A stretch of 63,971 nucleotides of DNA, the filler included, from Collodictyon triciliatum (lineage: Eukaryota): assembly GCA_043381765.1 (NCBI GenBank). It is 12 parts of 12 records of this genome, joined end to end, with 100 filler letters (N's around TTAATTAATTAA, not from the genome) between each part and the next. Parts side by side here need not be neighbours in the genome. Positions count along the whole stretch, not along the records: positions 29,672 to 35,490 come from JBHJMP010004913.1; positions 35,591 to 41,406 come from JBHJMP010004914.1; positions 41,507 to 47,319 come from JBHJMP010004915.1; positions 47,420 to 52,380 come from JBHJMP010004918.1; positions 52,481 to 58,288 come from JBHJMP010004920.1; 7 more parts are not named here. One strand, 5' to 3'. Positions 32,361 through 57,221 of the stretch are shown piece by piece. Every line of letters starts with the position of its first letter. The first letter of the stretch is position 1. Under the pieces are notes generated by a model that did not search any database, was not told the origin of the DNA, and saw only the letters and a program-made list of their open reading frames with translations. A program made the position numbers and the translations under genes.

Positions 32361-32438
32361 GTGAGCTTCGCTCCGGTCGAAGACTTGTATATCTTGCTGA
32401 AATAGAAGAGTAAACCAATTATGGCGTATATTCTTGTT

Positions 32439-32464
32439 TTTTTTTTCCTTTATTCGATTCAAAG
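32439..32464 (-). mobile_element. Ultra-short retroposon copy A (CTTTGAATCGAATAAAGG-A8)
   Basis: Perfect 17-bp direct repeat TGGCGTATATTCTTGTT at 32422-32438 and 32465-32481. Confidence 0.85.
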
Positions 32465-33535
32465 TGGCGTATATTCTTGTTAAATATATTGTATATTTCC
32501 CATTGTTACATATATATATATTCGCGTTGGTTAATGTTTTTTGGGGTTTTTGGGGTTATTTTGGTCTTTGTGAATGAGTGTCTGCGACACGACGTAGAAA
32601 TTTATTACGGCAAAATATAAATATAGTGGCAGCAGGGTTGCGCATTGAGTATAGAGATGAATTTGTATTAAAAACTCACCGATAATAAACAAACTTATTG
32701 ACTATCCATATGACAAACAAGGTCGAACATGCAAGTACGCAATATCCAGCGGAAAAGAAATTGCGGTCTTCGTTGAGCACACTTGCACTTGTCTGCGCAT
32801 AATCAAGCAAGGGTTGTAAGAAAGACATTCAAAGACAACTAATGTGACTAGGGCAGAAGAGAACAGCACGAAAGACTTGATATCACGCCAAACAAGCTCA
32901 ACCTGCTTTCCTTTCACTGAAAGAATGGCCAGACCAAAGAAAAGTGCCGCAACAAACATAAGGAAGCTACGGAGTCGAAGAATCTCTGTCAGATGAAGTT
33001 CGAGCTGATCAACGTTGCGGTTTTGCTTTGTGGGTGTTCGGTGATTGGACAGAGGGACTTTGGCAAAGGTGGTTGATCGGGAGTTCGCATCACCCCGGTT
33101 TTTGAAGTTCAAATAGTCCATTCCTCGTCAGACTCGTGTGCGAGTGCAGCAGGGGTCGAGGTGTTGGCCAGACCCTTTCAGGCAGTTGCTGTGGAGTTGA
33201 AGGAGCTATGCCAGCGAGAGGTTTATTGGACAGGCTTTATTTCCTTTATGTTTATCATTTTTATGATCATTATTTTGGTTGAGATATGGATTTATTAGAG
33301 AAAAAAGAGCCGGCTCTCCGGAGTGGATGTCCTCCACGCAAAAGGAACAAGTTGACGTTCTTCCGAAAAAAGACCGGTGACTCAGGTCGAGTGTGCTCCT
33401 GCTGGGGCTGTATTTTTTTTTCTTTTTATTATTGGCCATTGTTACTGTGCAACACAAACTCAACCTCCTCAATCAAAGAGGAATTATAATTCTAGTATTA
33501 TAAACTAATATGTTCTTTCGAATAAACAAGGAGTT

Positions 33536-33608
33536 GCCGAAATAGCTCAGTTGGAAGAGCGTAAGACTGAAGATCTTGATGTCCTTGGTTCGATCCCGAG
33601 TTTCGGCA
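33536..33608 (+). tRNA. tRNA-Phe (GAA)
   Basis: GCCGAAA/TTTCGGC acceptor stem, D arm TAGCTCAGTTGGAAGAGC, anticodon arm TAAGA-CTGAAGA-TCTTG, T loop GGTTCGATCC, and a T-run Pol III terminator ~8 nt downstream. Confidence 0.96.
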
Positions 33609-52900: not shown

Positions 52901-54432
52901 AGTCTCCGCACAACCATCGAGATCACCAGCAAAAACTCCGACAAAGCTTCAGTCAACTACACAGAAGCCCTCTTTAGGGGTATCAAAAAGTTTCAGCAAG
53001 CCCGTCGCCCTATCCCGAACCAGGACATCCCGATTCTCTCGCTCTGGTAGGAGAACAAATACTATCTCCAGGAGACCACAATCGAGGTCTATGGCGAAAT
53101 CAAAATCTGCCACGCGTGTCCCAACCAGGACCAACCGCGGGTCGAAATCTCGCTCTAGGTCGCAATCGTATACAGCGTACCCTGACCAAGAAATCCTCTT
53201 TTTGGTCGCCGGGACGGTCGAAACTTTCGACCGGATTGCATTTGTGAACTCCCTGTCCAGTGCCACAAATGTAAGTGTAAATGGACGATAGTCTAATTTG
53301 TGAATGATTATCAGCTTGTTCATTCGTATTGTCTACTCAATGGATTTACTCTGATTCATATGATAAATATCCCCAGTGTAAAGCCACTTCTGTTTCTTTT
53401 ACTCACCCATAATAAGGAAATGAAATACAATACATGTCACTAAACTGAAAAATAATTTTAACTTAAACAGGTTCCTGTGGAGCAGTATGAAGTCACCAAG
53501 GTTGAACCAGGAAGCGTGCTTGCCACGGTATTGATTAGATATGTCCCTGGGTCCAACCAAGCCAGTCCAAAATCGGTACACGCCGCATATTTAAACTCTT
53601 TATTTTAAATTTTTAATTTCTTATACTTCGAATCGAATAAAAGAAAAATATCATTATATATCCTGTAATTTTTTTGAATCCTTTGTTATCTGCTCTACTT
53701 GTACTTGTAATATAGCCGACTAAAACCCTTGGATTTGCGTCTAGATTTCCAACAGCATCGTGGCTATGGCTTCATCGGGGTCCACATCTTTGGCTAACAT
53801 TGGTGTCATAGGAGTAAGCCAGACATCTGCGGACGATATTGTCGTAGTGGTTCCGCGCGCAGATAGTAGCGTAAGTTTATCCGTCAGCCTTATCTTTCCT
53901 CCTATAAGCCCAACTGAAGCGCACTTCCTCAAGCAGCCCCAACACCATAATCGATACACACAATATTCCTAGTGATTTATACTGAAGCAGTGCTCTGATT
54001 AATAATAATAATAATAATAATAATAATAATAATAATAATAATAATAATAATAATAATAATAATAATAATAATAATAATAATAATAATAATAATAATAATA
54101 AATAAATAACGATGGCGATGAATAATAATAATTTTTTTTTCCTTTATTCGATTCGCGATGAATAATAATAATAATAATAATAATCAGCCTGGGGCCACCG
54201 GGTACATCGTTGGTTCACTAGTTGGTGTGTTGTCTCTCGCAGCAGCCCTTGCGGCTGTCAAGTAAACTTTATTTTTTTTAACCATATCTCGAGAAGTGTG
54301 TGTTAAGCTCAGTGACATCCTAACCGCATGAATGACAGATTGATGGCCTCTTCCAACCAAAAGGAAGTGGTTGTCCCTCGCCCAAATTCCAAAGTATCGG
54401 TCAAGTTTGGCGACACCGATGCCAATGTGTGA
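52481..54432 (+). CDS. 3' part of a type I surface glycoprotein: Ser/Thr/Pro mucin-like repeats, SEA-like domain, TM, short tail
   Basis: Open frame of SGSKTASKTQSVTPQPTNTPSKTRSEPIIQTRTQ repeats, then FDRIAFVNSLSSATN-VPVEQYEVTKVEPGSVLATVLI, TM YIVGSLVGVLSLAAALAAV, ending KFGDTDANV*. Confidence 0.7.
54133..54154 (-). mobile_element. Ultra-short retroposon copy C (GAATCGAATAAAGG-A8, 4 nt shorter), intronic
   Basis: 18-bp direct repeat GCGATGAATAATAATAAT at 54115-54132 and 54155-54172. Confidence 0.8.
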
Positions 54433-54988
54433 TTCTGGTGATCACACATACACACTTTTGTTGCATCCTGTTTCTTACCAACGCATTTCCATTCCCTCCT
54501 TCCTCGGCTTGGTAACTCCCCCACAACACACAGCTTCTATATCTATCCAAAAACGAAATTGAGCGAGAAAGTGAGAGAGGGAGAGGGAAGAGTCAGAAAA
54601 ACGAAACAAAACCAAGCAAAACAGACAAAAACAAAACATAACAAGGACGAATGGGGATGAAAACCCTGGGGAGCTATGGTCCTTCCGAAGTCAGTTTTTC
54701 TGCCCTGCTCTTTTTTTTCTCTTCCGTCTCCTCACCTTGTCATCTTTCCACTCGCGCCTTCTTTCTATATCCGCCCCTCCTCGCCACGTAATCAGTCCTC
54801 CTCTACGCAACAAAAGACACATAAATCTGTGGGTCGATAACCCAGACATCAAGCATCGGCCAGGATACCGCTGAACCCAACCCACCAGCAAGCGAGAAAC
54901 GAGGCGGACCAGAGCAGCCGAGCCGGATTTATGGCAGTTTGTTGCAGGCAATCTCGCCTTGCTCATCGCAGAAAAGCACAGCGGCTCT

Positions 54989-57221
54989 TTACAGCTTGCT
55001 GGGCAGCAGGTCAGGGTAGAATGGCCCAGCAGCGCCGCTCAGCCAGCTTCCTCCATCAACAACGAAGATGGAGCCATGCACAAAGGACGCTGCGTCGCTC
55101 ACTAGGAAAAGGGTGGCGTTGGCAATCTCAGAGATCTACAGAGCGAGGCAAGGGGACAGCTTGAGTCAGTCACATCAAACGACATATTCGAGCGATGTAT
55201 AGTTATGAATGAGGATTGTTACACATGGCATCGAGATAGGCTGTCCTTACATCACCCCAACGCTGAAGGGCCACGCTGCGAATCATGGCTTCTTTGTAAC
55301 CTTTGGGAGCTAATCTGGACATTCCTTCAGTATTGTCGATGGGCCTGTGAGTTACACACCGATAGCAAGAGGTTAACCAGTGTTAGATGTAAGCCATCCC
55401 TTTTTGTTTTTTTGTTTTTGTTTCTTTCCCTCCCTCCAATTTAATGAAGAATTCAGACGAAAACAGTCTCTCATGTAATGATATATCTGGGTCGTTGGAA
55501 GGCAGACCCAATCGCAATTGTGTTCACACGAACGCCGAGGGGTCCCCACTCTACTGCGAGATGCTTAGTCATTGCATCGATAGCTGCTTTGGCAGAACCA
55601 GCGTGAACCTACAGCATTTAAAAGCTGACATAAGCTCACGTTTTTTAAACTTGGGAGCGCTTTTAAAATAATAAAGGAGGATATTTGTTTTCCACTCACC
55701 TGGAGAGGGGTACCGTTATACTGCAGTGTAGCCGACAGATTGACGATGTTACCTCCCTTGTCTAAGGGATATTAAGGTTATCGATGATATTTTTTTTTCC
55801 TTTATTCGATTCAAAGAAGGTTATCGATGATATAATTATAGTAGACAAAAGCAAAAAGCTAAAAGGAAAAAGCAAAAATTAAAAATCAAAAAAAAAAAAC
55901 AACAGTAACCTTTCATGTATTTCGAAAAGACAGCCTTAGTAACGTTGAATGTCCCAATTGTGTCTATTTCAATAACAGTGCGGAAAGCATTATACGAAAG
56001 AGCCTCTGCAGCACAGAGAAAGTTTCCAGCAGCACCTGTTTACGTATGTAAGTCAAGCACATGTTCAAAAACATATTTCTGTACACCCATGTTATATAAC
56101 TCGGCCAGTTATACATCTTCCTCTTTCATGATGATAGAATATAACTTAACCGTTAATAAGAATGTCAATGCGGCCAAAGTGGCGGAGAACCTCGTCAACA
56201 GCAGCCTCTACTTGTTTGGGATCTCTCACATCAGCCGAGACAGAGAAGCATCTATAGTTAGATCGAATGTTTGACGGAAAACGAAATCATATCAAATTCG
56301 TCCCGATGGTAAATTCGTTTTACACTATGTTGAACTCGAGCAGAGAATGAAAGAAAGAAAGAAAGAAAGAAAGAAAGAAAGAAAGAAAGAAAGAAAGAAA
56401 GAAAGAAAGAAAGAAAGAAAGAAAGAAAGAAAGAAAGAAAGAAAGAAAGAAAGAGCCCATTTTTGATCAGTCTGAAACCTTTTCCCAGTTGTTTTCTCAA
56501 GTTGAGTGGCTGAGGCAACAAGTTTGTCCAGTCTGGTGCCCGCCATAAATAACGCATATTTTTATTTGTTAAGAGCGCCCGTTATAATCTTTCGCTGGAG
56601 AAATAGACAGCACAGGGAAGTTTTGAACATAAGTAGGACAATAAGGACAAGGGATTCGACAGGTTCAGATCATTCTCACTTGCGACTCATGATTGCGGTG
56701 TCGCAGCCGTGTCTCATCAAGGTTTCGGTGATACCATAGGATATACCTAAAAGCAAAGAGCGATTCGGAATCAACAATCCTATGCTTGTTCCAGACTGTG
56801 CACATATAGAAGAAGACTTGGGTGTCATTGGATTTGACTTCGAAGTCGCTGCTTGTTGGAGTTATTTCCTCCACCCTTTCATTGGGTTTTGTTTAAAGGA
56901 GAGGCGGACATACTTACCCGTGGCTCCTCCGGTTACAAGGGCTACTTTCCCTTTGAGAAAGTCGGGCTTGAAGACATCTGTGGAGTGTCCGATCGGGTTT
57001 CGGCTGATCGAAAAGAAGTCTTTGAGAGAGAGGAAGAAAAAGAAGAAAAAGAAAAAGGAGAAAAAAGCGAAAAAAAAATGTTTTTTTTTTCAAGAAAAAG
57101 AGGAGCAAATGAAAAAAAGAGGAAAAAAAAAAAAAAAGGAATCATTTCATCATAAGCTTACCGGCTGAGATCCTCACCTCTCGACATTTATTGGGGCTTC
57201 ACCCACAGCAGGCGCGGTCAT
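54989..57221 (-). CDS. DECR2: Peroxisomal 2,4-dienoyl-CoA reductase (DECR2/SPS19-like SDR)
   Basis: [86 protein letters not shown], and C-terminal PTS1 SKL*. Confidence 0.92.
55791..55816 (-). mobile_element. Ultra-short retroposon copy B (identical to copy A), intronic in DECR2
   Basis: Perfect 17-bp direct repeat AAGGTTATCGATGATAT at 55774-55790 and 55817-55833. Confidence 0.88.

Follow-up and report, generated by a model that had tools for sequence, protein, structure and literature searches.

What is an 18-nt sequence that recurs, each time with a run of A's behind it, in unrelated parts of a genome? We consider this question for the sequence CTTTGAATCGAATAAAGG in a 63,971-base stretch of DNA from Collodictyon triciliatum (assembly GCA_043381765.1), hereafter the window, which consists of 12 separate pieces, most of them ~5.8 kb long. 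An earlier sequence-only reading had placed the 18-mer on unrelated contigs, a description that is therefore literal. We regard it as probable that every copy is a retrocopy, dead on arrival, of the final 18 (14–19) nt plus the poly(A) of the RNA of a long interspersed nuclear element (LINE), L1-like and carrying an apurinic/apyrimidinic endonuclease (APE), and that it was inserted by the machinery of that LINE via target-primed reverse transcription (TPRT).

Searched on both strands with up to 2 mismatches allowed, the window contains 5 matches to the 18-mer (32447–32464, 55799–55816 and 49883–49900 on the minus strand; 45699–45716 and 53626–53643 on the plus strand). The number expected was 0.01, and none of 100 shuffles reached 5, which upholds the reported recurrence on different contigs and in both orientations. 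In a dust-masked self-BLAST the element was the sole dispersed repeat of the window, the one other match being a local 102-bp tandem array, and a repeat search of the whole window returned microsatellite families alone. The copies and their target-site duplications (TSDs) are the following.

32439–32464, minus strand: copy c1, full core of 18 nt (T8 on the plus strand), tail of A8–A10 with two A's common to tail and TSD
32422–32438 and 32465–32481: TSDs of c1, perfect over 17 bp, target TTT/AAC
55791–55816, minus strand: copy c2, full core of 18 nt identical to c1, tail of A8–9
55774–55790 and 55817–55833: TSDs of c2, perfect over 17 bp
54133–54154, minus strand: copy c3, 14-nt insert lacking the first 4 nt of the core (begins GAATCG), A9 tail
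54115–54132 and 54155–54172: TSDs of c3, perfect over 18 bp, adjoining an (AAT)n microsatellite
45698–45721, plus strand: copy c4, an extra T plus the core with 1 mismatch (19 nt), short A-tail
45681–45697 and 45719–45735: TSDs of c4, 17 bp with 1 mismatch
49873–49901, minus strand: copy c5, an extra T plus the core with 1 mismatch (19 nt), tail GGGG A6
49902–49918 and 49860–49876: TSDs of c5, 17 bp with 2 mismatches
53626–53648, plus strand: c6, an older copy with 2 mismatches in the core and an A5 tail, TSD not detected
6413–6429, plus strand: c7, a possible old copy, perhaps a chance match, TTTGAATCGAATAAAAA, no significant TSD
138–164, plus strand: c8, a possible old copy, core with 3 mismatches plus GGG A6, no TSD

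For each of c1–c5, shuffling the downstream flank 300 times gave no more than one score as high as that of the observed flanking repeat. Once tail A's are counted, the TSD is 17–18 bp long in all five clear copies, with three perfect TSDs and two that contain 1–2 mismatches. The coordinates and perfect TSDs originally given at 32439, 55791 and 54133 were reproduced, as were the decayed TSDs at 45699 and 49873 and the lack of a clear TSD at ~53626 (p 0.9) and ~6413 (p 0.08). A separate scan for A-runs accompanied by a perfect upstream repeat of at least 12 bp returned c1, c2 and one probable chance match, and shuffled sequence gave 0–4; c3 was left out because its TSD is of low complexity. The junction between core and tail is G-expanded in both c5 and c8, which suggests more than one source subfamily.

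Every TSD of a clear copy starts with A. This A follows T at four of the five sites and C at the fifth, c5 (49883). The poly(A) directly abuts the downstream TSD in all five copies, and the position of the TSD beside the A-tail fixes the orientation of the element. The insertion sites are mutually unrelated sequences, which argues against strict site specificity, a criterion for the Tx1 clade. Taken together, the anatomy of the clear copies is that of a TPRT product; the poly(A), the 17-bp TSD and the nick before A bear out the L1-type mechanism that the sequence-only reading had recognized.

To locate the source of the 18-mer, metagenome contigs were scanned for the 3′-most 14 nt of the core followed by A5. 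The scan returned 35 loci, 34 of which are chance matches in unrelated contigs. The one true match, L008, is 1,157 bp long and contains a LINE 3′ end, read on the minus strand. Its open reading frame (ORF) encodes the zf-RVT domain of non-long-terminal-repeat reverse transcriptases (PF13966; the score of 32.4 bits exceeds the cutoff of 27.5). In order, L008 comprises the zf-RVT frame, a frameshifted continuation, a stop, ~80 nt of untranslated region (UTR), ...CGCTACA, the exact 18-mer, A10 and an unrelated AT-rich flank. The frameshift lies at 549–606 (minus strand), as judged from the metagenome proteins P0036 and P0055, which are nearly identical but uninterrupted there; the L008 copy is thus defective, and the family has intact-looking members elsewhere.

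The window itself holds two LINE remnants, in line with the earlier report of a LINE in this DNA.

2040–2492, plus strand: relic of a related LINE 3′ end, decayed and 5′-truncated, with C-terminal coding region and UTR
29135–29571, plus strand: 5′ portion of a LINE ORF2 in degraded form, covering the APE endonuclease region, interrupted by stops or a frameshift and running off the end of piece 5 so that its 3′ end lies outside the window

By tblastx, L008 matches the first of these at 2108–2326 (45% identity over 73 aa, E 1e-11), and the two can be aligned at the nucleotide level from the coding region through to a homologous tail at the end of the relic. That tail, CTTTGTGCTGAAATAAAAAG plus A8, is a diverged version of the 18-mer tail, and between L008 and the relic it is better conserved than the UTR just upstream. 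Because the 18-mer is contiguous with LINE UTR in L008 and has a homologous counterpart in the relic, it is the terminus of a LINE lineage and not a separate gene. At the level of sequence, the insert is identical with this terminus, so that a LINE 3′ end, one of the sources originally envisaged, is demonstrated. The notion of an autonomous retroposon family is given up, since 18 nt without a promoter cannot propagate themselves; any new copy must derive from a LINE transcript, or from some other transcript with the tail at its end. The LINE's own enzymes appear to have made the insertions.

What type of LINE is this? An exhaustive phmmer search with the L008 ORF gave 14 matches: short fragments at 59–98% identity and long proteins of 1226–1275 aa at 29–38%. 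A word search among longer proteins found no match to an ORF of the L008 type; the relatives came from the exhaustive search. Domains were scanned in 7 of the 14 matches, and Exo_endo_phos and RVT_1 are present in all four long proteins, with zf-RVT in three of these four at scores below the Pfam cutoff. The order of APE, reverse transcriptase (RT) and zf-RVT in full-length relatives points to an APE-type, L1-like LINE, with the RT and APE domains read in distant relatives only (29–38% identity) and as the degraded endonuclease fragment in the window. This fragment (29135–29571), probably the LINE that the sequence-only reading had noticed, was recovered by tblastn with the long LINE relatives, the best match (E 2.8e-13) being to residues 15–143 of a 1275-aa APE-RT protein. 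An 88-aa piece of the region gave no Pfam match, and regex scans of the window in six frames revealed no convincing RT core. Directly upstream of the degraded endonuclease region lies a 276-aa ORF (28297–29127) without a Pfam match, possibly a LINE ORF1. A scan of a viral collection for the motif gave 0 matches, and a profile of LINE C-terminal fragments found no relative among viral contigs. A scan of prokaryote genomes gave 10 motif matches, all in records titled bacterial genomes or metagenome-assembled genomes.

We compared the stretch 54103–56348 with contigs of four sequencing runs, X1 and X2 (RNA), X3 (DNA) and X4 (a freshwater metatranscriptome). It contains one of the copies within a gene.

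54921–55997, minus strand: expressed spliced gene with introns at ~55136–55250, 55344–55506, 55607–55697 and 55764–55912 (CT..AC on the plus strand)

The introns are defined by spliced contigs of X1, X2 and X4, and three of four X4 contigs agree with the spliced gene at no less than 99%. The AATAAA-bearing copy c2 lies in sense orientation in the intron at ~55764–55912. Summed depth is ~496–500 in the bin that holds c2 (55753–55827), compared to ~20–45 elsewhere. Among the matches listed are contigs that share nothing but the motif and continue on either side into 18–255 nt of unlike sequence, as do two X3 contigs; the X3 DNA contigs match the motif at other loci only. No empty-site allele was seen among these contigs, which is uninformative on polymorphism, as the locus is covered by no DNA contig and the copy is removed from the RNA contigs together with its intron. 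The presence of the motif with different flanks in X1, X2 and X3 contigs and in L008 indicates that it is multi-copy, recurs in data sets independent of one another and is found away from transcript ends too. We also noted a contig of a plus-strand transcript (54412–54849) with poly(A) after 54849 and CATAAA ~25 nt upstream, a single example. The AATAAA of the LINE tail, unlike this CATAAA, stands just 2 nt before the poly(A).

These observations fit a simple series of steps. The LINE endonuclease would nick the bottom strand immediately ahead of an A, which at four of the five sites is preceded by T, and the T-rich 3′ end would then prime on the poly(A) of the LINE RNA. Presumably only the terminal 18 nt are copied or retained, with 14–19 nt ending up in the genome. 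The second strand would be cut 17 bp away, a notably constant distance, and repair would produce the 17-bp duplication.

Why, then, do the copies begin at nearly the same place? The inserts are 18, 18, 19, 19 and 14 nt long in c1, c2, c4, c5 and c3, respectively, so that four of the five starts fall within 1 nt of each other, as had been claimed from the sequence, on a sample of n = 5 copies. In c4 and c5 a single T lies between the TSD and CTTTG. We think that the shared start results from the RT preferentially stopping or jumping template early, ~18 nt from the poly(A), at times perhaps with the addition of one untemplated nucleotide.

Several observations weigh against ordinary LINE retrocopies of this kind. 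UTR-like sequence continuing that of L008 or the relic is present in none of the five clear copies and none of the three candidates. Under uniform truncation, the probability that four of five starts fall in a 2-nt window is 0.013 over a range of 14–30 nt, 0.0014 over 14–50 nt and 0.00012 over 14–100 nt. The base before CTTTG is A in L008 and T in c4 and c5; the extra T was therefore not read from an L008-type template and is either untemplated or derived from a different subfamily. Nothing that would make the RT stop was found: neither the fold of the L008 3′ end (z 0.37) nor a 5-bp hairpin that spans the core (–0.3 kcal/mol) outdoes those of shuffled sequences, and there is no ribozyme (Rfam) or tRNA-like element. 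L008 comes from a metagenome, and its species may differ from the organism of the window. Finally, the comparison of LINE 3′ ends rests on two sequences, L008 and the relic. The CTTT and AAAG halves of the hairpin are kept in the relic, a comparison of two sequences with no covariation.

The sequence-only reading had held that a continuous series of longer 5′ extensions leading into a LINE would mark the copies as ordinary truncated tails. The window contains no such series, and to this extent the discrete 5′ end stays. Longer copies are underrepresented in so fragmented an assembly: contigs are prone to break at long, young LINE copies, as at the end of piece 5, which lies within a LINE, and the ratio of 18-nt to longer copies is therefore unreadable from the window. 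Copies of 20–50 nt are likewise absent from it, though such lengths would assemble easily.

The best surviving alternative is that the template is a discrete short RNA, namely a 3′ fragment produced by processing or slicing of the LINE transcript, or of any transcript ending in an inserted copy, that starts at CTTTG, has poly(A) and is reverse-transcribed, in cis or in trans, through to its 5′ terminus by the RT of the LINE. The sharp 5′ ends and the missing 20–50-nt copies are what such a template would predict. The extra 5′ T of c4 and c5, which belongs neither to the TSD nor to the L008 template, resembles untemplated addition at a template end, and the conservation of the tail above the adjacent UTR in L008 and the relic would fit a recognized module. 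However, the boundary shows no ribozyme, tRNA-like element or structure that could act as a processing signal, and c3, at 4 nt shorter, indicates that the end is not strictly fixed. The shared start is compatible both with an RT that stops or jumps early and with a discrete processed RNA; we favor the stop or jump because it needs no extra RNA species, and we consider the short RNA unlikely. A related and broader proposition, that the LINE makes a defined mini-template or has a programmed strong stop, such that most integrations consist of the exact 18-nt module plus poly(A), is also doubtful in our view, though it deserves slightly more weight.

A second alternative takes the LINE likeness as fortuitous and the copies as an independent family of very small SINEs (short interspersed nuclear elements) or small RNAs, resembling a spliced leader on the other strand (T8CCTTTATTCGATTCAAAG). 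The motif is indeed frequent in RNA contigs, the depth of ~500 in the c2 bin being the clearest instance, and on that strand it ends in CAAAG. Against this, the 18-mer is joined to LINE UTR in L008 and has a homologue in the relic, the orientation is settled by the place of the TSDs next to the A-tail, no Rfam family or tRNA coincides with any copy, and 18 nt are too short for an RNA polymerase III promoter. RNA contigs extend 181–255 nt past both sides of the motif, which thus does not lie at transcript 5′ ends, and the spliced-leader proposal of the sequence-only reading falls with this. We judge the independent family very improbable. Classification as a conventional SINE was rejected separately: the 18-nt insert has no tRNA, 7SL or 5S head and no RNA polymerase III promoter inside it, and its copies have no Rfam or ARAGORN match. 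Spliced-leader RNA was rejected as a class as well, with contigs that run past both motif sides and no match to a spliced-leader family in Rfam.

An artefact (adapter or assembly chimera), a concern voiced from the outset, or the excision footprint of a DNA transposon has the small insert size alone in its favor and is next to negligible, given locus-specific 17-bp duplications around each clear copy, the presence of the motif in RNA as well as DNA runs, independent and belonging to different studies, and in a Joint Genome Institute contig, an A-tail of varying length, a feature foreign to excision footprints, and a core that is not a terminal inverted repeat.

The retrocopies of the LINE terminus lie in DNA of eukaryotic character, as seen from a kinase ORF, a tRNA-Phe gene, spliced transcripts with GT..AG introns and very many microsatellites. 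When the 9 longest ORFs of the window were searched against Pfam, eight had no match and the ninth was a protein kinase; its best identity among 35 homologue matches is 41%. Other features of the window are as follows.

33535–33609: tRNA-Phe (GAA), ~1.07 kb from copy c1, the sole Rfam or ARAGORN match in the window
5829–5928 and 10 like sites: spacers between pieces, N44-TTAATTAATTAA-N44
61484–62200: gap of 717 N within the last piece, separate from the spacers

There is no sign that tRNA genes serve as insertion targets of the element. The 102-bp tandem array comprises 4–5 copies of its unit at 94–98% identity and occupies 52481–52990, at the start of piece 10 and inside a long open frame. 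Microsatellite richness is exceptional (e.g., 1–130, 4430–4530, 5700–5810, 11520–11878, 23510–23654, 44997–45100 and 54000–54113). Many pieces start or finish in simple repeats, which probably explains the fragmented assembly.

As ordinary LINE debris, the 18-nt copies would have little importance beyond the warning that insertions of 20–30 bp with TSDs escape repeat annotation. The step of LINE integration at which complementary DNA (cDNA) synthesis aborts or the cDNA jumps is poorly understood. If the 18-nt length holds genome-wide, the copies would form a natural record of the points at which TPRT breaks off, or at which the cDNA switches to the upstream end of the target, and would reveal a LINE that disperses minimal modules with AATAAA by the thousand. 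Should the LINE in fact make a defined mini-template or stop in a programmed manner, it would be seeding introns and intergenic DNA with a complete AATAAA hexamer at about one copy per 7–12 kb, and to our knowledge the 18-nt module would be the smallest retroposed repeat family. An exact-word search of full texts, without supplements, found no description of fixed-length LINE tail copies of ~18 nt, which is a weak negative.

How do the copies compare with known systems? LINE and SINE tails of the stringent type, such as the stem-loop of eel UnaL2 and UnaSINE1, form a conserved 3′ module that is common to the mobilized RNAs. The likeness here is a short 3′ module that is more conserved than the adjacent UTR, in two LINE relatives; the differences are that it forms no significant stem-loop and ends in poly(A), not in a short tandem repeat. 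Platy-1 is among the shortest described SINEs at ~100 bp (PMC4864456). It resembles the present copies as a short, non-autonomous, poly(A)-bearing retroposed repeat with TSDs and L1-type mobilization, and it differs in having about five times the length and in being treated as a family that has source genes of its own, whereas the 18-nt copies are a promoterless LINE terminus. At the short end of the range, a poly(T) insertion in NF1 has been interpreted as an Alu, L1 or processed pseudogene in severely truncated form (PMC3219598).

The closest counterparts are 5′-truncated copies of L1-like LINEs, with which the present copies share a 3′ poly(A), locus-specific TSDs, a T/A nick, the lack of coding capacity and a sequence that is the terminus of a LINE. 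Truncation in this case clusters 18–19 nt from the tail in four of five copies and is not scattered. TSDs of L1 range from ~7 to 20 bp, and compared to this variable length the TSD is nearly fixed here, at 17 bp. What differs from known truncated LINE copies is the combination of a near-fixed length of 18–19 nt with a near-fixed TSD of 17 bp.

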